DNA from: an uncultured Clostridia bacterium
GTDB lineage: Bacteria > Bacillota > Clostridia > Christensenellales > Borkfalkiaceae
DNA: 64,000 nt
NCBI GenBank assembly: GCA_934278995.1
Contig: CAKQWM010000003.1
Span: forward strand, 62,516-126,515
Direction: 5' to 3'
Positions 5,575-64,000 of this stretch are shown in pieces. The position numbers were made by a program, and so were the translations under genes. Below the pieces are notes generated by a model that saw nothing but the letters and a program-made list of their open reading frames with translations, had not been told where the DNA came from and ran no database searches. The stretch's first letter is position 1, and the number at the start of each line of letters is the position of its first letter.

Positions 5575-6924
5575 ATGCGCATACATTTTATAGGCATAGG
5601 CGGCGCGTCCATGTCCGCGCTTGCAAAATATCTTAAGTTCAAAGGATATATCGTAACCGGGAGCGATAAATCGACCTCAACGGTTACGCGCGAATTAAAA
5701 AAATACGGTATCACCGTTTTTTCAGGTCATAAAAAAGAGAATATAATCGGCACCGACGTCGTTATATACAGTTCTGCAATTCCGGAAGATAACGAGGAAT
5801 TATATTTTGCGCGCAAAAATAAATCAGCCTGCATAAGCCGAGCCGAATTGCTTGAAATGATTTCTTCTAAATATTGTCAAAAAATCGCTGTTTCGGGAAG
5901 TCACGGTAAAACCACGGTTACTTCGCTTCTCGCGCATATTCTGAACGTTTCCGAAACCTCGTTTACCGCTCATATAGGCGGTTTTGACAACGTATTAGGA
6001 AACTTAGTCGTAAAAGGGGACTGCGTCTTTTTGAGCGAAGTTTGCGAATTTAAAAGAAATATAGATAAATTTTCACCGACTACCGCTGTTTGTCTTAATA
6101 TAGATAACGACCATTTGAATTGTTATCGTGACGTGAGCGAATTAGCGCAGACTTTTTATACTTTTCTCGATAAAGCGGAAACCAGAATCATAAACGCCGA
6201 TGACGAAAAATTGAAGTATTATGATAAATTGTCGGTTACCTTCGGTGAAAAATCCGGAGACTATACGTTTAAAAACTACTTGGTAGAAGGCGATAAGGCT
6301 TGTTTCGACGTGTTTTTACGAAACAAAAAACTTTTCGACGTTAAAACAAATTATATCGGAAAATATTACGCAATGAACGTAACCGCTGCCGCGGCGACTG
6401 CTTTTAGTCTGGGAATAACCGTCGAGGATATTGAAAAAGGCATAACCGATTTTAAAGGAGTAAAGCGCAGAAACGAAATAATTGGACAATTAAACGGTTG
6501 GAACGTAATCGGCGACTACGCGCATCATCCGAGCGAGATTAAAAACTTTATGAGCGCCTTTAAAGATAAAAAGGTGTTGTGCGTTTTTCAACCGCATACC
6601 TATTCGAGGACGAGAATCCTGTTTGACGATTTTGTCGCAGTATTGTCGGATATCCCGAATTTATTTCTTTATAAAACTTATTCTGCAAGAGAAAATTATG
6701 ACTATTACGGCTCGGCGGAAAGGCTTTCAAATGCATTATACGATGCAAAATATTACGATAATTTTCGGTTACTATATAAAAATATATCCGAATTTACTTT
6801 AAATTCAAATTCAAACGGTTTAATTTTAGTCGTTGGCGCGGGGGATTTATACGACAAATTTTACAATGAATTACATAAAGAAAAAACCCGCGAAACTTCA
6901 CGGGTTTTACAGCAAAATAGTTAA
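5575..6924 (+). CDS. murC: UDP-N-acetylmuramate--L-alanine ligase
   Basis: The N-terminus reads MRIHFIGIGGASMSALA and is followed by the Mur ligase P-loop GSHGKTT. The ORF is 449 aa. Confidence 0.9.
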   Translation: MRIHFIGIGGASMSALAKYLKFKGYIVTGSDKSTSTVTRELKKYGITVFSGHKKENIIGTDVVIYSSAIPEDNEELYFARKNKSACISRAELLEMISSKYCQKIAVSGSHGKTTVTSLLAHILNVSETSFTAHIGGFDNVLGNLVVKGDCVFLSEVCEFKRNIDKFSPTTAVCLNIDNDHLNCYRDVSELAQTFYTFLDKAETRIINADDEKLKYYDKLSVTFGEKSGDYTFKNYLVEGDKACFDVFLRNKKLFDVKTNYIGKYYAMNVTAAAATAFSLGITVEDIEKGITDFKGVKRRNEIIGQLNGWNVIGDYAHHPSEIKNFMSAFKDKKVLCVFQPHTYSRTRILFDDFVAVLSDIPNLFLYKTYSARENYDYYGSAERLSNALYDAKYYDNFRLLYKNISEFTLNSNSNGLILVVGAGDLYDKFYNELHKEKTRETSRVLQQNS

Positions 6925-6931
6925 TTATATT

Positions 6932-8773
6932 CTATTCGAAAAATCTCGGGTTTTCCAGGTTCAGATACTTAATAATGAAATACACGGGAACGTTTAAAAT
7001 AACGATCGACGGGTATAAAACGTATCTTAAAAGTTGAGCGGTATTTGAAAAATCGACTTCTGCCAAAATTGAAAATACTATGGTTATAAGCACTAAATTA
7101 AGCATTATCACTATGCACAGTTCTATAACCGACTTCATCGTAGATATCGACGCGACTTTGCGTTTAGGATCTATAAAATAGGCAATAAGCGCGGAAAGAG
7201 GGAACAATCCTACGATGCAGGCAAATACGATAAACGGCGTGTTGTCAAGTTTTGCCGCGCCTGCGGTAAAATAAGCCAAAAGCGCAACTTCAAACAGAAC
7301 GAAAGCGTAAAAAATCCAACTTGAAACGGCGATTAATTTGTTTACGAGAATCGAATTAACCTTTTTCTTGATTATACCGCTCGAAACGTTGACTTTGAAA
7401 CCTTCCATTTTCGCAAGCGATTGAATGTCCGAAAAATCGTAACCGTCGGGCCTTACGACAGTAACTTCAGGCTCGTGTTTTTGTTCGCGTCTGATATTAT
7501 CTGTTCTTTCTTCGGCTTTTTTAGCCTGATGAATCTGCGTCACGGGTTGACGATATTTGTTTTCGACTTTTACAACGTTATCGAATTCGTCCGTATTTTG
7601 TCTTTTCTCGGGTTTATCGTCGTCGTTAAAGTAACTCTTTATATCGGTGCCTTGAACGTAAACCATTTCACGGGGTTCTTCCGCAGGCTGTTTTTTATTC
7701 TGTTGATGGAAAATCTTTTGTAAAACGCTCTTATAGTCGTGCGAAACCGTTGTTTCGCCGTTGTAAAAATCGTCTTCATCCTCGATATAATCCGGCGTAA
7801 ACGTAGGCGTTTTCGCTTCTTCTTTAGAGGGAAAATCGGAAACGTTACGCTCCTTTAAGGAATCTTGAGCGTTAGTTGCAGAAGGTTCTTTTACGGGTAC
7901 CGTAACGACGTTCAAAGTAACGTCTTTTTTAACGTCCTGGTCGGAATCTTGAGCGACTTCCGCAACTTTTTCCTGAACGGGTTCGCGTTTTTGTTCTTCC
8001 TTTTTAGCGGAATCCTGAGCCTTGTCGTCGGCGTCGAAGCCAACGAGGGTGAATAAATCGTATAATTCAGGGGAGTCCGCTTGTCTCGAAATATAGTTAT
8101 CTTTCGGCTTTTCCGTCGCGGCGGGTAAATCGTCAACAATCGGCGGACGAGCGGTTTGGGCTTCCTGCGCTTCGGTTTTTGCGGTAATATCGCTGAAACT
8201 AATTATTTTAACGTTTTTATCGGTTGCCGAAACGCTTATTTCTTCAGTATGGGAAGAAGGCGAAACTTCATCGCGTAACGGCGCGTTGCTTACGTCGTCG
8301 GAAGAAATCGGCTGTTGAGGCTGCGTATCGTCGGAATTTAAAAAATCTTTCAAAGCCTTATCGATATCGAACGCTTCCTGAACGGGTTCGGGTTTTTCGT
8401 TGACTTTTTTCTTTTCTTCGGCTTTAGGTTTGGCTTTTTCGGGTGTTTCCAGCAATACGTTAACGACAGAACGAGAAATTTCCCATTTATCTTTGTTGTC
8501 GTCGATATAACTTTTTCCTTTTTCCGTAAGCTGATAAAACTTGCGTCTTACACCGTCGTCGGAACTCGTCGCTCTGTACTCGGTAACAAAACCTTGTTTG
8601 ACGATTCTTTGCAAGCAACTATAGAACGTTCCTTGTTTAAGGTCAAATTTGCCGTCGGAGCGTTCTAAGATTTCTTCACGTATTTGATTTGTATGTTTAT
8701 CTTCGTTAACAAGCGATAATAAAATTATCGTGTCAAGATGACCGCGAAAAATCTCGCTGGGAATAACATCCAT
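6932..8773 (-). CDS. PadR-family transcriptional regulator with a long charged low-complexity linker and a C-terminal four-helix transmembrane domain
   Basis: The first ~100 aa form a PadR winged helix-turn-helix (HLDTIILLSLVNEDKHTNQI ... YRATSSDDGVRRKFYQLTEKG). About 370 aa of K/E/D/P/S/T-rich sequence follow. The last ~150 aa contain four hydrophobic helices. Confidence 0.7.
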   Translation of the reverse strand: MDVIPSEIFRGHLDTIILLSLVNEDKHTNQIREEILERSDGKFDLKQGTFYSCLQRIVKQGFVTEYRATSSDDGVRRKFYQLTEKGKSYIDDNKDKWEISRSVVNVLLETPEKAKPKAEEKKKVNEKPEPVQEAFDIDKALKDFLNSDDTQPQQPISSDDVSNAPLRDEVSPSSHTEEISVSATDKNVKIISFSDITAKTEAQEAQTARPPIVDDLPAATEKPKDNYISRQADSPELYDLFTLVGFDADDKAQDSAKKEEQKREPVQEKVAEVAQDSDQDVKKDVTLNVVTVPVKEPSATNAQDSLKERNVSDFPSKEEAKTPTFTPDYIEDEDDFYNGETTVSHDYKSVLQKIFHQQNKKQPAEEPREMVYVQGTDIKSYFNDDDKPEKRQNTDEFDNVVKVENKYRQPVTQIHQAKKAEERTDNIRREQKHEPEVTVVRPDGYDFSDIQSLAKMEGFKVNVSSGIIKKKVNSILVNKLIAVSSWIFYAFVLFEVALLAYFTAGAAKLDNTPFIVFACIVGLFPLSALIAYFIDPKRKVASISTMKSVIELCIVIMLNLVLITIVFSILAEVDFSNTAQLLRYVLYPSIVILNVPVYFIIKYLNLENPRFFE

Positions 8774-8806
8774 AAAAACATCGAAATCCTTTGTATAATT
8801 AAGTAA

Positions 8807-8835
8807 ATTATAACATTATTGTATATCAATGTCAA
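8807..8835 (-). promoter_or_regulatory. Consensus sigma-A promoter for the PadR-like gene
   Basis: The minus strand reads TTGACA, a 17-nt spacer, then TATAAT. The -10 sits about 30 nt upstream of the ATG at 8773. Confidence 0.7.
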
Positions 8836-9088
8836 TATTGTTTGATTAAATTTATCGATTAATGTCGAACTTTTTTTCAAATTTGCTTCGTTACAGGGAA
8901 TTTAATCACATTTTATATGACGGTTTTTTTGTAATTCTGTAAGGATTCATTTTAAATTAAGGCAAAAAATAATATAAGATTTTTGCTTTATAACAAACCG
9001 CGCAAAATTCTTTTTATTATAATAATCTGTAAAATTTAAGTAAAAATCTGCGATTTTACGATTTATTACCTTTTTCGGGACATATTAC

Positions 9089-9126
9089 TCAACTATGCGT
9101 AAAACTTGTGTTTTACGCATAGTTGA
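9089..9126. repeat. Perfect 17-bp inverted repeat with a 4-nt spacer (TCAACTATGCGTAAAAC ttgt GTTTTACGCATAGTTGA)
   Basis: The arms are exactly complementary. The repeat lies about 20 bp upstream of the -35 of the recombinase promoter and has no U-tract on either side. Confidence 0.85.
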
Positions 9127-9144
9127 AAATCTGTCGCCTAATCG

Positions 9145-9173
9145 GTTGACTATCCGAAATTTTTCATTTATAA
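9145..9173 (+). promoter_or_regulatory. Sigma-A promoter for the recombinase gene
   Basis: TTGACT, a 17-nt spacer, then TATAAT. Confidence 0.65.
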
Positions 9174-9210
9174 TAAATAACAGAAACGTTTTTCTAAAAA
9201 AATCGTAACG

Positions 9211-9240
9211 CTTTACTATATCAACCTTTACTATATCAAC
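9211..9240. repeat. Exact tandem direct repeat 2 x 15 bp (CTTTACTATATCAAC)
   Basis: Two perfect adjacent copies lie in the transcribed leader 12 bp upstream of the recombinase ATG. No Shine-Dalgarno is obvious there. Confidence 0.85.
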
Positions 9241-9251
9241 TCGGTTATATT

Positions 9252-10301
9252 ATGGCTAAATTAAACGACGACTATTTTACACAAAGAAAAATTAACGCAA
9301 TCACACAATTAAATAAAGCCCTTGTAGAATTGCCCGATTTTATGCGTGAGTATCTTTTGGGCATAGAAACGAGGACGTCGCCTCTTACACGGCTCAATTA
9401 TTGCATGGATTTAGCCATTTTTTTTGATTTTATATCAAACAAATACTCGATTTCCGTTAAGGAAATAGATTATAAAATGCTTGATAAGATTACGGCGTTC
9501 GATATCGAACAATTTTTGAGTTATATTTCAAGTTTTGACTATAAAGGAGAGCATCATACGTGCGACGAAAAGGCAAAAGCGCGTAAATTAGCCTCGATTC
9601 GTTCTATGTATAAATACTTTTTCAACAAAAATTTAATCGTCGCTAACACCGCTTCCAAAGTCACTACGCCTAAACTTCACGAAAAAGAAATCGTCAGGCT
9701 TGAAAACAACGAAATAAAAAACCTGTTGTACTCTGCCGAAACCGGCGCGGGGCTTACAAAACATCAACTCGCCTATCAAAAAAACACACAGTTACGCGAC
9801 GTATGTCTTCTTACCCTGTTCTTAGGCACGGGAATACGTATCAGTGAACTCGTCGGCTTGAACGTTAACGACGTTTTTCTTGAAAACAACAGTTTTGTAG
9901 TAACGAGAAAAGGCGGAAATCGCGCTATATTATACTATACGGACGAAGTAAAAGAAGAACTCAAACGCTGGATTTTGGCAAGAGAACAAATACCCGGTCT
10001 TTTAAAAGAAGAACAAGCCCTGTTTGTTTCCTTAAAACTAAAGCGTATAAGCGTCAGGGCTGTTCAGGACTTAGTGAAAAAATATGCAAAAATTGTATCG
10101 CCTTTGAAGCATATTACGCCACACAAATTACGCAGTACTTTCGGTACGAAACTATATCGTGAAACCGGAGATATTTACGTAGTAGCAGACTATCTCGGAC
10201 ATAAAGATATCAATACGACCAAGCGTCATTACGCCGCTATGAGTGAAGATATCAGAAAGAAAGCGATAAAAACTATCAAACTTAAAAACGACGATAATTA
10301 A
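9252..10301 (+). CDS. Tyrosine site-specific recombinase (Xer-like / phage-integrase family)
   Basis: The C-terminal catalytic region contains HKLRSTFGTKLY and GHKDINTTKRHY, giving the R..H..R..Y residues. The N-terminus has a core-binding domain (MREYLLGIETRTSPLTRLNYCMDL). Confidence 0.85.
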   Translation: MAKLNDDYFTQRKINAITQLNKALVELPDFMREYLLGIETRTSPLTRLNYCMDLAIFFDFISNKYSISVKEIDYKMLDKITAFDIEQFLSYISSFDYKGEHHTCDEKAKARKLASIRSMYKYFFNKNLIVANTASKVTTPKLHEKEIVRLENNEIKNLLYSAETGAGLTKHQLAYQKNTQLRDVCLLTLFLGTGIRISELVGLNVNDVFLENNSFVVTRKGGNRAILYYTDEVKEELKRWILAREQIPGLLKEEQALFVSLKLKRISVRAVQDLVKKYAKIVSPLKHITPHKLRSTFGTKLYRETGDIYVVADYLGHKDINTTKRHYAAMSEDIRKKAIKTIKLKNDDN

Positions 10302-10351
10302 AATTATGCTTGTCATAATTTTATCTAAAATACTTGATTATATAAGCGATT

Positions 10352-11392
10352 ATGCAAAACATTCTGATTATCGAACCGCTTTTTGACGGAGAGATTTACG
10401 ACGAAAAGAAAGACGAAATAACCGCGCTTTGCGATAGCGCCGACGGAAAGGTTAAAGTTATTGTTTCACAAGTTATCCGCACGATAACGCCCGCTACTTT
10501 CATAGGAAAAGGCAAAGCGGAAAGCATTAAAGAAATCATTTCCGAAACCCCTGTAGATTTATGCGTATTTGACGGGGAATTATCCCCTTCTCAAACACTT
10601 AACCTATCCGATATCATAGGCATTCCCGTTATCACAAGGACAAATCTGATACTTGATATTTTTGCGCGTCACGCAAAAAGTTCGGAAGGTAAAATTCTCG
10701 TCGAACTTGCCCAACTTAAATATATCTACCCTCGCCTCAAGGGTAATGGCGACAGTATGTCGCGCCTTGGCGCGGGAATCGGCACTCGCGGTCCCGGCGA
10801 AACACAATTAGAAACCGACAGAAGGCACATAAGAGCAAGAATTTTATCCCTTGAAGACTCGCTTGAAAAAATAAGAACGCGTCGCAATCTTGAATACAAA
10901 CGCCGTAAAAAAAATCGCGCTAAAACCGTCGTTTTAGTCGGATATACCAACGTCGGCAAATCAACTTTGTTAAATCTTTTATGCCAGTCTTCTGATTTAA
11001 TGATGGATAAACTGTTTGCGACGCTCGATACTTCGTCTAAACGCGCTTATATAAACGGTTATAACGTTGTTTTCGTCGATACGGTCGGTTTTATTAAGAA
11101 TTTACCCGACGATCTTACCGAAGCGTTTAAATCTACTTTGGAATGCATACGCGAAGCAGACCTTATACTGAACGTGTCCGACGCGACGAAAAATTGGAAA
11201 GAACAATTTTCAATAACCGAAGAATTGTTGAAAAAGTTCGAGCATACCGCGGAAATTATCGACGTCTTGAATAAATGCGATAAAATGCCCGATGAGTTTG
11301 TTCCCGAAAAAATAATTAAAATTTCTGCGCTTAAAAAACAAGGCATCGATGAGTTGAAAAATATTGTCGTATCAAAACTCGGCTTAAAATAA
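10352..11392 (+). CDS. hflX: GTPase HflX
   Basis: HflX N-domain, G1 motif GYTNVGKSTLLN, then DTVGF. The ORF is 346 aa. Confidence 0.9.
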   Translation: MQNILIIEPLFDGEIYDEKKDEITALCDSADGKVKVIVSQVIRTITPATFIGKGKAESIKEIISETPVDLCVFDGELSPSQTLNLSDIIGIPVITRTNLILDIFARHAKSSEGKILVELAQLKYIYPRLKGNGDSMSRLGAGIGTRGPGETQLETDRRHIRARILSLEDSLEKIRTRRNLEYKRRKKNRAKTVVLVGYTNVGKSTLLNLLCQSSDLMMDKLFATLDTSSKRAYINGYNVVFVDTVGFIKNLPDDLTEAFKSTLECIREADLILNVSDATKNWKEQFSITEELLKKFEHTAEIIDVLNKCDKMPDEFVPEKIIKISALKKQGIDELKNIVVSKLGLK

Positions 11393-57098: not shown

Positions 57099-58067
57099 TT
57101 ATTCGCACAAAACGTTGAACAAGCCTTCGTAAAAAGCGCCGTCAAAAGTGATATCACCGCTTTTAAAACCCTGCTCGCACGCGGAAAGTTTATCCATTAT
57201 TTTTTTAAGACGTTTAGGCGAAAAACTTTTCGCCTGTCTTCTCGCCATGGTAACGGCAAACGGTTTAACGCCAAGAATCTGTGATAATTCATCGTCGTTT
57301 GCGTTTGACATTACGACGAAAAACATTCGCCTGAAATGATAGTAAAGCGACGCGAACAGCATTTGCTTGTCCGAAGTCGAATTGAGTTCTTTCATAATCC
57401 GATAAGCGTCGGCGTAACTTTTGTTTGCAATAAACGAAACCATTTCATAAATCTTATAGTCGTTGGTTTTTGTAACCATTAAGTTTACGTCGTCTTCCGA
57501 AATATCCGTCTGCCCCGTTTTATACGCGATAAGTTTATCGACCTCGCCCATAATTCTCGTCATATCGTAAAGACAAAACTCTGCGATAAGTTTGCACGTC
57601 GAAGTGGAAATAATCAATCCTTCTTTGGTGCATTTCGAGCGAACGATTTTTGAAATCAAATCAATATCGCCCCTTTGACAGTCGATAACCGTCACCGAAG
57701 ACGCTTTTTTTAAGGCTTCGCATTTTTTGGTATTGCTTACTATAAGTACGGAAGTATCGAAAGGATTATCGAAATACCGTTTAAGCGTTTTATCTTTAAA
57801 GTCGGTTGAGGAAGGATACCATTCTCTTAGTAAAATCGCCCGTTTTTCACTCATAAAAGGACAACTTGATAGCAAAGAAATCAATGCGTCGGTCGATTTT
57901 GCAAAATACGAACCGTCGTACGCGACGAAATTCAACTCAGGCTCGGTTATCGACGCTTGCAAAATCAATTCAACCGCCTTATCACGGAAAAAATCCTCCT
58001 CGCCTTCGAGCAAATATATAGGGTAAATTCGTTCTTTCAAAGAACTTTTCAGACTTTCAAATTTCAT
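57099..58067 (-). CDS. holA: DNA polymerase III subunit delta
   Basis: A 322-aa protein with the N-terminus YPIYLLEGEEDFF. It overlaps the upstream comEC by 4 nt, matching the comEC-holA synteny. Confidence 0.85.
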   Translation of the reverse strand: MKFESLKSSLKERIYPIYLLEGEEDFFRDKAVELILQASITEPELNFVAYDGSYFAKSTDALISLLSSCPFMSEKRAILLREWYPSSTDFKDKTLKRYFDNPFDTSVLIVSNTKKCEALKKASSVTVIDCQRGDIDLISKIVRSKCTKEGLIISTSTCKLIAEFCLYDMTRIMGEVDKLIAYKTGQTDISEDDVNLMVTKTNDYKIYEMVSFIANKSYADAYRIMKELNSTSDKQMLFASLYYHFRRMFFVVMSNANDDELSQILGVKPFAVTMARRQAKSFSPKRLKKIMDKLSACEQGFKSGDITFDGAFYEGLFNVLCE

Positions 58068-59545
58068 AACACACCGAAAAAAGACATTACGAGAGTTGCC
58101 ATCGACATTAGCCCGAAAATAAGTTTTACGGGCTTTTTAAAATTCGTCCTCTCGCAAAAAACGAAAGCAAAAAGATAATACAAAATAATTGCGACGACGG
58201 ATATTCCCCCGCTTACGGTAAATACGCGCGAATTGATTTCGATTAAAAACGAATTCAGAAAATACGCTACGAAATACGGTATTTTAAAAGAAAAACCCAT
58301 AAACGGAAAAATTGCCGTCAAAATAGTTGTTGTAAATGAAAGCGTATATAAAACGCTTACCATAGGTACAAGCAAAACGTTCAAAAATACGACGATTAAA
58401 GAACTGTAGCCAAACATAGTAAAAAGCGCGGGCGTCATAATAAAACTGACGGCAAAACTTACCGATAACGACGAAGCGATGCTTTCGGGTAAAAAAGTAA
58501 AATAGGACTCGAAAGATTTATTGCATAAGGCTATCGAAAAGACCGCAAGATACGACAATATAAACCCGTACGAAAACAAAGTGTTCGGAAAAATCGCAAG
58601 TACGATTATAAAACTTAGGAACAAAGAATTTAAAACGTCGTATTTTCTGCCTATGTTTTTAACTAAGTTGAGCGTAATACTCATTATTACCGCTCTGACG
58701 CAAGACACGGGAAACCCGCACAACCCGGCGTATAACAAGCAAAATACAGCGCCGATTATAGTGTTTTTTACACCGTTGATTTTAAAAAGCGACAAAACGG
58801 CGCCTATAACCGACGAGAAAAACACTACGTGAAGCCCGGATACGGCAAAAATATGGCTGATGCCGGAGAGGCGGAAGTTAGATAAGGCGCTTTCGTCGAT
58901 TTTTGAAGTATCGCCGAGCAGTAACGCTACCATTATGCCACCCTCGTCGCCGCCGACGTTTGTTAAAATAAGATTTTTAACAAAACCGGAAGCCACGTAA
59001 AACGGATTAACAGGCGCGGTAGCCGACAAAACGGTTACATTTGTTATTTTCAAGGAGGTTTTCGAGGAATAATTCGCAATCGAAAAGGGTAAAAATTTTA
59101 TATCGCCTTTCAGCCTGATAATATCACCGCAATTAAAAGTTGCGTTATCCGTATAGAAACAAGCGTTGCCGTACGCGCCTTCGTTACCTGTTTTCAGATC
59201 GGAAAGGGTAATTCTGAAGTTTCCCGACGAAGCTGTAGCAACGTCTGAAACCGTGCCGTTTATAATAAGCGATTCCCCTGCCCGTAAAGCGTCGTCGTTA
59301 TAAAGAAAAATATTATATACGGTGTACAACGCGCCCGAAATAAAAAATAACGAGATAACTATTGCTTCGATCTTAAATTTTTTAAGCGGTTTGAAAAGAA
59401 AACAAAGTAAACAAAATAAAGCGCACAACGCCGAAATAACGTACAGCAAAACCGAAACGCCGCCGTAAAGCGCCGTAACGATCATTCCTGTCGCCAAGGA
59501 AAAGGCGCAGAAAACTATCGGTCTGTTGTTAAGGATTCTTCTCAT
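58064..59545 (-). CDS. comEC: ComEC/Rec2 DNA-uptake channel (DUF4131 plus Competence domain) lacking the C-terminal MBL domain
   Basis: An N-terminal OB-like DUF4131 region is followed by a polytopic Competence domain containing SGLHV. The protein ends after the last transmembrane helix at 493 aa, against about 750 aa for full-length ComEC. Confidence 0.8.
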   Translation of the reverse strand: MRRILNNRPIVFCAFSLATGMIVTALYGGVSVLLYVISALCALFCLLCFLFKPLKKFKIEAIVISLFFISGALYTVYNIFLYNDDALRAGESLIINGTVSDVATASSGNFRITLSDLKTGNEGAYGNACFYTDNATFNCGDIIRLKGDIKFLPFSIANYSSKTSLKITNVTVLSATAPVNPFYVASGFVKNLILTNVGGDEGGIMVALLLGDTSKIDESALSNFRLSGISHIFAVSGLHVVFFSSVIGAVLSLFKINGVKNTIIGAVFCLLYAGLCGFPVSCVRAVIMSITLNLVKNIGRKYDVLNSLFLSFIIVLAIFPNTLFSYGFILSYLAVFSIALCNKSFESYFTFLPESIASSLSVSFAVSFIMTPALFTMFGYSSLIVVFLNVLLVPMVSVLYTLSFTTTILTAIFPFMGFSFKIPYFVAYFLNSFLIEINSRVFTVSGGISVVAIILYYLFAFVFCERTNFKKPVKLIFGLMSMATLVMSFFGVL

Positions 59546-59683
59546 AACTTACAATACAAGAAGTTTAAACTTGCCTGCGAGATTTTTTAACTTCGCGTTT
59601 TTTCGGAAAAGTTTTGAAGATTTTCGAGAAAAAACGGGCGTTTGTTCAAAAATCCCCAACCGAGAGGCAAAAAGTTTCACTTC

Positions 59684-60403
59684 TTATAATTCATATCTTT
59701 GGTATAAACACGGCTCTACTCTGTCGCACGCCGATTTTGCTTCGTAAATCAGGTCGCCTTTTGAAATAGTCGGTTTGAAATGGGAAATCAGAGCCTTTTT
59801 GATACGGCATTTTTCTGAAATCAGCCCGACGTGTTCAGCCGATAACAAGGGCTTTTCATCCGACCAGTCTTTACGCAGAAACCCGCAGTCGATAATTGCT
59901 AAATCGCAGTCGCTTAACATTTTATACAGATTATCGCATACGTTGCCGTCGGAGGTATAAGAAAATTTTTTACCTTCGCAATACATAGCGACGCCATACG
60001 TCGGAACAGGATGATTCGTTTTGTAAAATTCAATACGCAAGTCGCCGAAAATAAGCGGTTTATTATCCGAAATCGGTATATATTCAAAATAAGGACTTTT
60101 TTCGATAAGTTTTTGAAATTCCGAACCGTCATCCGGCGCGTAAACCTTTAATACTGCGTTTCTCGTCTGCAGATAATAACTTAAAACGCCTATATCGGAA
60201 ACGTGGTCGAAATGATAATGAGAAATTATTATTCCGTCGAGTTTTTCCGGTTGGATACGCTTAATAAGTTTTGCAAAAACTCCGCTTCCTATATCGAGAA
60301 GAAAGTTTTTACTACCCGCCGAAACAAGATAACCGCTCGTCGGATTATTTTCGTCGGGGTAAAGCCCGTTAGTGCCTAAAGGTTCGATATACATAAAAAG
60401 CAT
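59684..60403 (-). CDS. MBL-fold metallo-hydrolase
   Basis: Carries IISHYHFDHVSDIG, the HxHxDH motif. The ORF is 239 aa. Confidence 0.75.
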   Translation of the reverse strand: MLFMYIEPLGTNGLYPDENNPTSGYLVSAGSKNFLLDIGSGVFAKLIKRIQPEKLDGIIISHYHFDHVSDIGVLSYYLQTRNAVLKVYAPDDGSEFQKLIEKSPYFEYIPISDNKPLIFGDLRIEFYKTNHPVPTYGVAMYCEGKKFSYTSDGNVCDNLYKMLSDCDLAIIDCGFLRKDWSDEKPLLSAEHVGLISEKCRIKKALISHFKPTISKGDLIYEAKSACDRVEPCLYQRYEL

Positions 60404-60458
60404 CCTCGGTTTGCTTGCAAAAAAATGAAAAATGTAAAAATAAAAAATCGATTTTTAG

Positions 60459-60487
60459 TTGCATAACGCAACGATATATGCTAAAAT
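60459..60487 (+). promoter_or_regulatory. Sigma-A promoter of the orphan RNA
   Basis: TTGCAT, a 17-nt spacer, then TAAAAT. Confidence 0.6.
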
Positions 60488-60493
60488 AAAATT

Positions 60494-60728
60494 GTAAAAA
60501 AGTTTTCTACTGTGTGCGAGGTAAGGTTATATTCTCTCCGCAATCACTAAAAAGGGAATCGGAGTCCTATCGGTTATGTAAAACTCTCAGCCATTGTCTT
60601 AGGTGCAGGTTGATTTAACGGAGTAACAGATACCCCTCGGCTTGATACCCACCTGCAATTAAGCGGGTTGATTTTTACCTTATACGGCACGTGTGGGGGC
60701 GACGGCAAAAGCCGTCGCTTTTTTTTAT
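60494..60728 (+). ncRNA. Candidate structured small RNA, about 205 nt plus terminator. The family is unassigned; 6S-like is one possibility.
   Basis: The region has its own promoter and a strong intrinsic terminator (GGCGACGGC aaaa GCCGTCGC plus T8) with no downstream + strand gene. No ORF of 60 aa or more is present. Long-range complementarity links the 5' segment TAAGGT...CCGC to the 3' segment GCGG...ACCTTA. An internal stem TGCAGGT/ACCTGCA is also present. Confidence 0.5.
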
Positions 60729-61975
60729 TTTATCGTTACGACTTCGCCGTAAGGCGTAAAACGCGATTCAAAAAACGCTTTTACGCACTTTATCATAACT
60801 TCGACGTCGTTTTTACCCGCGGTTTCTATGCTTGAATGCATAGCAAGTTGCGCTAAACCTATATCAACGGAATTCATCTGAAGTTTTGCGCTTTCGATAA
60901 GCCCGAGCGTTCCGCCGCAACGGATATCCGAGTTATTATAGTAGTCCTGATATTTAATTCCGTGGTTGTCGAGAATGGTTTTGAGTACGGCTGACGAATA
61001 CCCGTCGGTAGAATAATTCGTGTGATGTTTTATAACTATTCCGCCGTTAAGATAAACTTTTTGCGAGGGATCGCTTTTTTCGGGGTGAGCGGGATGTACG
61101 GCGTGTCCGTTATCTACCGAAAGAATAAATCCGCTGTCTATGGCGGCATAATAATCGCCGTCCGTTTTACCGAGGTCGCAATTTACGCGTTTTAAAACCG
61201 AAGGCAAAAAATCCGAATAAGCGCCCTGCTTGGTATGACTGCCTATTTCTTCGTTATCGTAAAGACAGGCAACCGAAACGCCGTAATTGTTACAGTCGAT
61301 TATCCCGTTTAAAAGAGAAAAACAACTCGTAAGATTGTCTATTCTCGGCGAACAAATATATTCGTTATCCGCCCCGGAATAAAATGCTTTAACGGCAGGC
61401 GCGACAAAAATATCTCCGTCAACGATTTCCCCGTCACCGTACAAAACTTTATATAAATCGTCCTCTTTTCCTCCGATTAACGGCAACATATCGTTCTGCA
61501 CGGTAAGCAAAGCCTTTTCGTTGACTTCGGGATTATGATGAATACAAAGAGAAGGTATATTTACGTTAAAATCGCTGTCAACAAGTACGGTTTTTAAACC
61601 TTCTTCGGATTTTACGAAAAGCCTACCGCAAAGTTTAAGAGGAATGTTCATAAACGAGTAGCGTATAAGTCCTCCGTACGCCTCAACGTTTACGCGCTTA
61701 CCGCAGGGGCTGTCAAGAAGTTTTTTTCCCTTAACCCTTAACAGCGGAGAATCGGTATGCGCAAGCGCGATATTGAAAGCGTAATGAGATAAATCCCCTA
61801 CTTTAAAAGCAAGGATTGCGCTTCCGTTTTTTTCTATAAAATATTTACCGCCGACTTTCGCTTTAACGTTCGGTTCGTAAGGCAGAAACCCGTTTTCTAT
61901 AAGCATATTCTTACTTACTTTTACGGTTGCGAAAGCATTAGTCGAATTATTCAAGTAATCAAGTATATCCGTCAT
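60725..61975 (-). CDS. M18-family aminopeptidase
   Basis: An approximately 416-aa aminopeptidase-I / M18 fold. The start is assigned to the internal ATG (MTDILDY) to avoid a 60-nt overlap with engB. Confidence 0.7.
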   Translation of the reverse strand: MTDILDYLNNSTNAFATVKVSKNMLIENGFLPYEPNVKAKVGGKYFIEKNGSAILAFKVGDLSHYAFNIALAHTDSPLLRVKGKKLLDSPCGKRVNVEAYGGLIRYSFMNIPLKLCGRLFVKSEEGLKTVLVDSDFNVNIPSLCIHHNPEVNEKALLTVQNDMLPLIGGKEDDLYKVLYGDGEIVDGDIFVAPAVKAFYSGADNEYICSPRIDNLTSCFSLLNGIIDCNNYGVSVACLYDNEEIGSHTKQGAYSDFLPSVLKRVNCDLGKTDGDYYAAIDSGFILSVDNGHAVHPAHPEKSDPSQKVYLNGGIVIKHHTNYSTDGYSSAVLKTILDNHGIKYQDYYNNSDIRCGGTLGLIESAKLQMNSVDIGLAQLAMHSSIETAGKNDVEVMIKCVKAFFESRFTPYGEVVTIK

Positions 61976-61979
61976 AAAA

Positions 61980-62615
61980 TTATTCGGCGATTTCGCCGTC
62001 CTCACTGTAAAATTCTTCGTCTTCTTCAAAGCCGCGGGCAATCCTGACAGCGTTTTCTATAGCGTTAAGAACCTCTTCTTTACCGAGCCTTGTTTCGGCG
62101 GAAGTCGCTATCACGTTGTCTTTACCGAGGCCGAGTTTATTAGCAACGTAGCCCGCCTGAGTTTTTACTTTCGTTTTTGCGATTTTATCCGCTTTCGTAG
62201 CAACGAGCGTAAACGGAATGATTTCGGAATAAAACAAATTTATCATCAATTTATCTTCTTCCGTCGGATCGTGTCTTATATCGACAAGCGCAATCGCATG
62301 GGTAATTTTTGTACAATCGAAAAAATCACTTAACGTCCGTGCCCATTTTTCCTTTTCGCTCTTGCTTACCTTCGCGTAGCCGTAACCGGGTAAATCGGCA
62401 ATGATAAATTCCCCGAAATCAAAATAATTGACAAGCCTCGTACGACCGGGTGTGTTAGACGTTCTGGCAAGTTTTTTCTGATTTGCAAGCATGTTTATGA
62501 ACGAACTTTTGCCGACGTTAGACTTTCCGGCAACGCAAATTATAGGCTTTTCGGTGCGCAAAAAACCTTTTTTATCGGCTGCCGAAGTTATAAAAGTTGC
62601 GTTAACTATTTTCAT
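61980..62615 (-). CDS. engB: Ribosome biogenesis GTP-binding protein EngB/YsxC
   Basis: Carries GKSNVGKSSFINMLANQKKLARTSNTPGRTRLVNYF. The ORF is 211 aa and lies downstream of lon, as in Bacillus. Confidence 0.9.
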   Translation of the reverse strand: MKIVNATFITSAADKKGFLRTEKPIICVAGKSNVGKSSFINMLANQKKLARTSNTPGRTRLVNYFDFGEFIIADLPGYGYAKVSKSEKEKWARTLSDFFDCTKITHAIALVDIRHDPTEEDKLMINLFYSEIIPFTLVATKADKIAKTKVKTQAGYVANKLGLGKDNVIATSAETRLGKEEVLNAIENAVRIARGFEEDEEFYSEDGEIAE

Positions 62616-62616
62616 T

Positions 62617-64000
62617 TTACACCTTTAAATCGTCTATGGCAACGGCAAAAATCTCCGAAACGTCGCTTACGGGAATAAACGTAAGTTTATCCGCTATGTT
62701 TTTGGGAACGTCTTCGATGTCTTTAACGTTCTTTTTGGGTATAATTACTTTGTATATGCCTGCTCTGAAAGCCGCAAGCGATTTTTCTTTTAACCCGCCT
62801 ATCGGTAAAACCTTGCCTCTTAAAGTGATTTCACCCGTCATGGCGACGTCTTTGCGAACTTTTTTGTCCGTAAGAGCAGACAAAATGGCAGTCGCCATGG
62901 TAACGCCCGCGCTCGGACCGTCTTTCGGCGTCGCGCCTTCGGGAATATGAATATGAATATCCTTTTCGGTAAAAACTTTTTCGTCTATTCCGTAAATACC
63001 TGCGTGCGCGCGGATATAACTTATTGCCGCTCTCGCGCTTTCTTTCATTACGTCGCCGAGTTTACCCGTAAGCAAAATTTCGCCTTTGCCGGGCATAACG
63101 CTAACTTCGATAGTAAGCGTTGTTCCTCCGTACATAGTCCAGGCAAGCCCGGTTGCGGCGCCGACTTCGTCTGCTTCGAGATTATCGCTGTCGGAAAATC
63201 TCGGCGAACCCAAATAATCGGGCAAACTTTCGGGCGTAACGACTTGTTTTTTCAAAGCGCCTCTTTCGGCAAGTTTCGTCGCTATTTTTCTTAAAACGGC
63301 GTCTATCTGTCTTTCAAGATTTCTTACGCCCGCCTCCAAAGTATAACCTTTTATTATCGCATCAATCGCTTCGTCTGTAAATTTGACGTTTTTAGCCGTC
63401 AAGCCGTTTTTCTCAAGACGTTTCGGTATAAGATAAAGTTTTGCGATTTCGGCTTTTTCTTCCCTCGTATATCCGTCTAACGATATAACCTCCATACGGT
63501 CGAGCAAGGGCGCGGGAATGGTTTCGAGCGAGTTTGCCGTGGTAATGAACAAAACGTCGGATAAATCGTAAGGTATTTCGAGATACCTGTCACGGAAGGT
63601 TTTGTTCTGTTCGGGATCGAGAACTTCGAGTAGCGCGCTTGCGGGATCCCCTCTTAAATCGGACGATAATTTATCTATTTCGTCAAGCAAAAATACGGGA
63701 TTCGACACGCCTGCGTTCTTTATACCGTAAATAATCCTTCCGGGCATCGCGCCGATATAAGTTTTTCTATGCCCTCTTATTTCGGCTTCGTCTTTTACGC
63801 CGCCGAGGCTCATTCTCACGAATTTTCTGTCAAGCGCCCTCGCTATTGAAGTAGCGACCGAGGTTTTACCTACGCCCGGAGGTCCTACAAGGCATAGAAT
63901 AGAACTGCCGACTTTCTTCGTAAGTTTTAATACGGCAAGATACTCGACGATTCTTTCCTTGACTTTTTCAAGCCCGAAATGATCGCCGTCGAGAATTTTT
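62617..64000 (-). CDS. lon: ATP-dependent protease Lon, C-terminal portion (N-terminus lies outside the window)
   Basis: The reading frame is open to the window edge. It carries the AAA+ Walker [10 protein letters not shown] and the protease domain [17 protein letters not shown] with the catalytic Ser. Confidence 0.92.

Follow-up and report, generated by a model that had tools for sequence, protein, structure and literature searches.

A Very Probable 6S RNA Gene below the Rfam Gathering Score in an Uncultured, Christensenella-Like Lineage of Clostridia

Introduction

In the DNA of the uncultured Clostridia bacterium analyzed here (a stretch of 64,000 nucleotides, referred to as the window), a plus-strand unit of about 230 nt, running from promoter to terminator, is set between two minus-strand genes. 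This raises the question of what the unit is for: a structured RNA of a known family, an RNA particular to the lineage, a small protein, or transcription that matters only through its effect on the neighboring genes. The original prediction, which was made by eye, described a structured RNA of about 200 nt that is transcribed on its own, left it unclassified with a divergent 6S RNA as one option, and suggested a comparison with Rfam as well as a search for covariation in orthologous intergenic regions. 6S RNA, one of the well-known small RNAs, holds RNA polymerase in check by mimicking an open promoter. The evidence presented below argues that the unit is very probably the ssrS-type gene for 6S RNA in an uncultured bacterium of the Clostridia that is Christensenella-like.

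A Plus-Strand Unit between Two Minus-Strand Genes

The unit is flanked by a gene for an MBL-fold protein and a gene for an M18 aminopeptidase; the next genes outward are comEC and holA in one direction and engB and lon in the opposite one. The flanking genes and the signals of the unit are as follows:

59684-60403, minus strand: MBL-fold gene, one flank of the 6S unit
60725-62041, minus strand: M18 aminopeptidase gene, the other flank
60459-60464, plus strand: -35 element TTGCAT, read from the sequence, with three of six matches to TTGACA
60479-60487, plus strand: extended -10 element TGcTAAAAT, read from the sequence
60494-60726, plus strand: predicted primary transcript of about 233 nt, placed by promoter geometry and terminator
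60695-60726, plus strand: intrinsic terminator, a G/C-rich hairpin followed by T8 (60719-60726), with the helix present in all orthologues

The gene positions confirm that every neighbor is encoded on the minus strand, as the original prediction had stated. Its argument against a 5' leader or riboswitch also holds: Both neighbors are on the opposite strand, a strong terminator abuts the 3' end of the convergent gene, and there is no co-oriented downstream gene for such an element to control.

The promoter had been called near-consensus for sigma-A. Both elements are present, as is the 17-nt spacer between TTGCAT and TAAAAT (60482-60487), and the -10 matches the consensus at five of six positions with a TG at 60479-60480; the description is nevertheless generous for a -35 with only three matches of six, which is also why the site was not listed by a consensus scan. 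An extended -10 commonly offsets a weak -35. In nine of the ten sequences compared, the window included, a -35-like hexamer (TTGnnn/TTTACA), a 17-nt spacer, and TGnTAnnAT are found at the same distance from the 5' end of the RNA; the last of these motifs occupies the same position in the window, L006, L014, L007, L010, L008, L015, L016, and L019 (L-numbers denote the loci compared), and L009 is the sequence that deviates. The -10 of L017 is TATAAT. This geometry suggests transcription from the RNA's own sigma-A promoter with an extended -10, with a start around G60494 (7 nt past the -10) and an end within the T-run.

At the other end, the stem-loop at 60695-60722 has 12 pairs allowing G-T, seven of them G-C, and is the top-ranked terminator-like site within 58000-64000. 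The GC hairpin followed by T8 is present as originally described, except that the hairpin core (60699-60706/60711-60718, formed by GCGACGGC and GCCGTCGC) has 8 bp and not 9; in the consensus structure its strands extend over 60697-60706 and 60711-60720. The geometry suggests that this hairpin stacks on the closing stem of the RNA described below and ends the primary transcript. It should be noted that the terminator scan as a whole returned 13 sites against 9.8 expected in shuffles, which is no enrichment, and that the promoter scan was likewise not enriched over shuffles; the case for function therefore rests on conservation.

Conservation also bears on whether the unit could be a small-protein gene. 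Plus-strand open reading frames (ORFs) do exist within it, the longest being 34 and 55 aa, in agreement with the earlier statement that none reaches 60 aa, and the 34-aa ORF, which begins with GTG at 60514-60618, would be the obvious candidate. A conserved small ORF was the finding that the original prediction had named as telling against a structured RNA; among the 11 orthologues compared, none is conserved in frame, and the stop-free stretches vary in frame and extent. Indels of 1-3 nt, which also fall inside the window's 34-aa ORF, together with stops shift or break every frame (L015 carries a 1-nt insertion inside the ORF, and L017 differs again), the substitutions are compensatory in helices and lack three-base periodicity, and no Shine-Dalgarno motif is seen by eye before the GTG. 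The frame shifts and stops among orthologues rule out the small-ORF candidates, and a protein product as the function of this unit is next to impossible.

Some features of the neighboring genes deserve mention in their own right. The M18 stop codon (TAA, 60725-60727, minus strand) overlaps the T-run of the 6S terminator. Read on the minus strand, the terminator hairpin is followed by CCCCCACACG, with no U-tract, so that transcripts of M18 may continue across the 6S gene in antisense and on towards MBL-comEC-holA. Back to back with the 6S promoter lies a weak minus-strand promoter-like site (60471-60498, TTTACA-16-TATCGT, 9 of 12 matches), a candidate promoter for the MBL-comEC-holA genes whose -35, as judged by eye, is not conserved in L006. 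ComEC in the window (58064-60403, minus-strand region) has 493 aa and only the DUF4131 and Competence domains, and a separate MBL-fold gene of 239 aa lies immediately upstream of comEC. The MBL-comEC-holA arrangement is kept in all syntenic relatives. In other bacteria an MBL domain is fused to ComEC, and the two separate genes here may represent a split version of this. The precomputed Pfam matches of the 239-aa protein include PF23023 (Anti-Pycsar_Apyc1). In L002 (3363-4848), from a metagenome assembly whose MBL protein is identical, two ORFs of 190 and 289 aa were called for comEC instead of one of 493 aa, through either a frameshift or an assembly error.

Similarity to the 6S Family

60501-60703, plus strand: 6S RNA core, full-length match to Rfam RF00013 (model positions 1-187)

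The comparison with Rfam by cmscan points to 6S RNA. In a local search of a 400-nt region, the window copy matches RF00013 (6S/SsrS) with 33.5 bits and an E-value of 2.9e-5, and when the whole 64-kb window was compared with 4227 Rfam families, RF00013 was the sole match with E<0.1 (E 0.0046). The match is seen only in E-value mode: The gathering score of RF00013 is 46.4 bits, about 13 bits above the window copy, and at gathering thresholds the entire 64-kb window gave zero matches of any family, with tRNA, rRNA, riboswitch, and T-box all undetected at these scores. The conserved motifs of the model are nonetheless at the right positions, namely CCG.AA, GGGA, ACCCACCUG.AA, AGC.GGU, CCCACCUG, and CGGCAC. 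Two departures from the RF00013 consensus account for the lower score: The closing stem is rich in G-U and aligns poorly, with marks for non-canonical pairs, and the apical arm is longer, with an insertion of 43 nt relative to the model. The other weak matches in the 400-nt region (snoR121, DUF3800-I, Ref84, and similar; E 0.4-8.6) cover only the terminator hairpin or the A/T-rich flanks and were rejected.

Because the window copy itself falls below the gathering score, and long hairpin-like RNAs can pick up partial scores from covariance models, we considered a lineage-specific structured sRNA unrelated to 6S, acting by base pairing or as a protein sponge, whose resemblance to 6S would be a coincidence of rod shape. 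Partial scores do not describe what is found, in that every RF00013 match is full length (model positions 1-187) and the single-stranded and bubble-flanking motifs are reproduced, beyond the helices alone. No further Rfam family scores, and two orthologues lie above the curated threshold (see below). We regard an unrelated sRNA as very unlikely, and the term "unclassified" used originally has to be replaced: The RNA belongs to the 6S family, though below the Rfam threshold. The broader part of that prediction, an independently transcribed and structured RNA that might be a divergent 6S, is borne out by RF00013 being the sole Rfam match and by the 6S-type rod that covariation gives.

Distribution and Conservation of the Locus

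Ten syntenic orthologues were recovered from uncultured Clostridia or Christensenella-like genome and metagenome contigs. The gene order is the same in all ten, lon-engB-M18 peptidase-[gap of about 350-390 nt containing the RNA]-MBL-comEC-holA-DAC, the RNA is always on the strand opposite to its neighbors, and nucleotide identity ranges from 71% to 89%. A genome scan with the M18 peptidase gave five loci at 69-82% protein identity, in metagenome-assembled genomes labeled uncultured Clostridia or Christensenella with the exception of L006, and looking up M18 homologues at greater distance yielded another five, L014-L017 and L019 (59-78% protein identity). The MBL protein is identical on five metagenome contigs, and the same intergenic sequence is found there. 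Conservation starts about 14 nt after the -10 (approximately 60501) and ends at the terminator, and the flanks are not alignable.

The 6S family is the sole Rfam match in each of the nine scored orthologues (31.5-49.8 bits). Two of these are above the gathering score, L015 with 49.8 bits and L016 with 49.0 bits; below it are L009 (42.4), L008 (40.3), L007 (38.3), L014 (36.7), L010 (36.2), L006 (33.6), and L019 (31.5 bits). L017 has no Rfam match at E<=0.05. The gathering score is an operational threshold, and this syntenic clade straddles it; among the orthologues of the window copy are sequences accepted as 6S by Rfam itself.

Among further M18 homologues (L018 and L020-L022, 52-61% protein identity), synteny is lost and no 6S is found nearby at the gathering score, so that the family cannot be extended through the M18 anchor. 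A metagenome scan with the pattern CTCCGCAATCAC-N85-115-CCCACCTGCA returned three identical stretches (L011-L013), which are unrelated chance matches.

Three of the loci show peculiarities of their own. L006 (CAVJMJ010000002.1) is titled Parasutterella excrementihominis, yet it is the closest relative of the locus, with an M18 peptidase 82% identical and a 6S region 89% identical; it is probably a mis-binned or mislabeled assembly. The non-syntenic L021 has a threonyl-tRNA-synthetase-like gene preceded by a T-box leader at 9586-9784 on the plus strand, which scores 94.1 bits where the gathering score is 93. In L022, the 5 kb downstream of the M18 gene (6240-11239) hold no listed genes, reflecting missing gene calls or a long non-coding stretch.

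Consensus Structure and Covariation

The consensus structure was calculated with RNAalifold on 10 and then on 11 sequences (the window and its ten orthologues). The fold is a rod composed of a closing stem, a short G/C helix, a central bubble of 12+12 nt, a G/C internal stem, and an apical arm, with the following parts:

60509-60526, plus strand: closing stem (helix 1), 5' strand, pairing with 60678-60694
60678-60694, plus strand: closing stem, 3' strand, pairing with 60509-60526
60533-60541, plus strand: P2-like helix, 5' strand UCUCUCCGC, which adjoins the bubble, pairs with 60663-60671, and is part of the predicted pRNA template
60663-60671, plus strand: P2-like helix, 3' strand GCGGGUUGA, pairing with 60533-60541
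60542-60553, plus strand: central bubble, 5' strand AAUCACUAAAAA, unpaired in the consensus structure
60651-60662, plus strand: central bubble, 3' strand ACCUGCAAUUAA, in the consensus structure
60554-60569, plus strand: internal stem, 5' strand (GGG...), pairing with 60637-60650
60637-60650, plus strand: internal stem, 3' strand, whose last nucleotides are the conserved CCC of the CCCACCUG motif
60573-60633, plus strand: apical arm, helices 4-7 and terminal loop

Covariation in the orthologous intergenic regions supports this 6S-type rod with a central bubble. In the 11-sequence alignment, 96.6% of the cells form standard pairs, compared with 36-47% in slid controls, in which the partners were shifted by 1-3 columns; compensatory changes on both sides occur in 23 of the 61 pairs, compared with 1-7 in these controls, and the covariation score was reached by none of 500 shuffles. 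Such changes are found in 4 of the 14 pairs of the closing stem (97.4% of cells paired), 7 of the 13 pairs of the internal stem (helix 3), 10 of the 17 pairs of the apical arm (helices 4-7, 91-100% of cells paired), and 2 of the 10 pairs of the terminator (helix 8). The P2-like helix has seven pairs, six of which are invariant; covariation is uninformative for it, and it aligns with the equivalent helix of the Rfam model. The bubble, which was predicted independently, coincides with that of the Rfam model, and its flanks CCGC/GCGG and GGG/CCC are invariant in the 11 sequences. The complementarity between the 5' and 3' ends noticed in the original prediction is likewise real, with TAAGG/CCTTA lying in the closing stem and CCGC/GCGG being the helix that adjoins the bubble.

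In single-sequence folding, the reverse complement is about as stable (z -3.1 vs -2.7), and single-sequence energy therefore cannot decide the strand. A minus-strand transcript was rejected on other grounds: Promoter, terminator and T-run, the plus-strand Rfam match, and the G-U pairs all point to the plus strand.

The same conservation weighs on the idea that the RNA is incidental and the unit a cis-antisense or transcription-interference element, acting either through transcription that converges on the M18 3' end or by keeping read-through from reaching MBL-comEC-holA. Its position between two co-oriented minus-strand gene groups would suit such a role, as would the overlap of the terminator T-run with the M18 stop codon at 60725-60727, although this overlap amounts to a few nucleotides only. 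Interference, however, needs neither a conserved 200-nt rod with compensatory changes along its whole length nor the motifs of 6S RNA, and we consider it extremely unlikely to be what the unit is for.

A Predicted pRNA Template and Release Hairpin

Given a 6S RNA, the next point of interest is how it would release the polymerase. 6S release begins with the synthesis of a short pRNA by the polymerase on the 5' bubble strand; helix P2 is thereby unwound, and the RNA refolds (PMC8876501); the refolded form contains a 3'-bubble hairpin in E. coli, and a collapse helix together with a pre-formed 3' hairpin in B. subtilis 6S-1 (PMC8876501), whose pRNA initiates with GTP (PMC8876501).

The most conserved stretch of the RNA is the 5' bubble and the strand adjoining it. 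The longest invariant run is AUAUUCUCUCCGCAA, and A60542, A60543, and C60545 are also invariant in the 11 sequences. This run and C60545 fit a pRNA template of the kind expected in 6S RNAs, for which C60545, by analogy with B. subtilis 6S-1, is the putative starting position. The pRNA transcribed from the 5' bubble strand is predicted to be 5'-GAUUGCGGAGAGAA, beginning 5'-GAUUGCGG, with a predicted start 5'-GAUUGCGGAGAG antisense to 60532-60545.

On the opposite side of the bubble, an alternative pairing is available:

60651-60668, plus strand: alternative hairpin of the 3' bubble, ACCUGC-AAUUAA-GCGGGU, which cannot coexist with the P2-like helix

In computational folding, this hairpin forms in 11/11 sequences when the pRNA template is held unpaired, and it is already part of the unconstrained minimum free energy structure of 6/11; it was also listed by the scan for terminator-like hairpins. 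The two conformers, with either the P2-like helix or the 3'-bubble hairpin, are close in energy, and because both elements are invariant, covariation cannot tell which of them is used. Folding with the masked template predicts a potential for pRNA-induced refolding, in agreement with the release mechanism established for 6S RNAs (PMC8876501).

If E. coli 6S and B. subtilis 6S-1 and 6S-2 are taken as models, the RNA may act as follows. The bubble would mimic an open promoter and occupy the active-site cleft of the sigma-A RNA polymerase holoenzyme, so that under scarce nutrients 6S would damp sigma-A-dependent transcription. When NTPs return, the polymerase would take the 5' bubble strand as template, and pRNA synthesis would start opposite C60545 and continue into the UCUCUCCGC strand, unzipping the CCGC/GCGG helix. 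The freed GCGGGU would then fold with ACCUGC into the 3'-bubble hairpin, and the polymerase would be released.

Comparison with Known 6S RNAs

The RNA shares with the 6S/SsrS family (RF00013; in the Firmicutes, B. subtilis 6S-1, encoded by bsrA, and 6S-2, encoded by bsrB) a length of about 200 nt, a sigma-A promoter of its own, and the rod with closing stem, central bubble, and apical arm, in which G/C helices flank the bubble. It also has the CCG..AA, GGGA, CCCACCUG, and CGGCAC motifs at the positions of the 6S model. To our knowledge, the M18 aminopeptidase/MBL-comEC-holA context differs from the ssrS-ygfA arrangement in E. coli and from the surroundings of bsrA and bsrB.

The predicted 5' leader of about 7 nt is reminiscent of B. 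subtilis pre-6S-1 (PMC10578484), in which the leader has 11 nt and is removed by RNase J1 (PMC10578484). The terminator hairpin at the 3' end has its counterpart in B. subtilis 6S-2 (PMC10578484), where a terminator hairpin is putative (PMC10578484). As in both 6S-1 and E. coli 6S, a 3'-bubble hairpin competes with the P2-like helix (PMC8876501). The arrangement predicted here is nevertheless of the E. coli type, with the refolding hairpin drawing on the 3' strand of the P2-like helix, unlike the "central bubble collapse helix" of 6S-1 (PMC8876501). Ms1 RNA, described from Actinobacteria, is a structured sRNA that binds the RNA polymerase core enzyme and is structurally related to 6S (PMC9130861); the RNA studied here matched no Rfam family other than 6S.

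These features leave room for the clade's RNA to be a distinct 6S subtype, be it a 6S of the Firmicute lineage with an E. coli-type release hairpin, or a specialized, 6S-2-like paralogue with a canonical 6S elsewhere. The RNA might also interfere with convergent M18 transcription because the 6S terminator overlaps the M18 stop codon. We consider such a subtype unlikely, while giving it some weight. The 64-kb window and contigs about 10 kb long were covered by the search for 6S, and the genome may have a further 6S gene of more canonical type elsewhere, of which the window copy would then be a paralogue.

Implications for 6S Annotation

The reading that we prefer, that of a 6S RNA gene, leaves known 6S biology unchanged: The RNA is an ordinary, divergent member of the 6S family, and the chief value of the finding is for annotation, the lineage being one in which 6S is under-detected by Rfam. 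Across this uncultured gut lineage of Clostridia or Christensenella-like bacteria, the 6S of most members lies 4-15 bits under the Rfam gathering score, so that a standard pipeline will record such genomes as having no 6S. The RF00013 seed could be extended with the 11 aligned sequences and their covariation-supported structure, and the locus offers a testable prediction in the form of a pRNA beginning 5'-GAUUGCGG....
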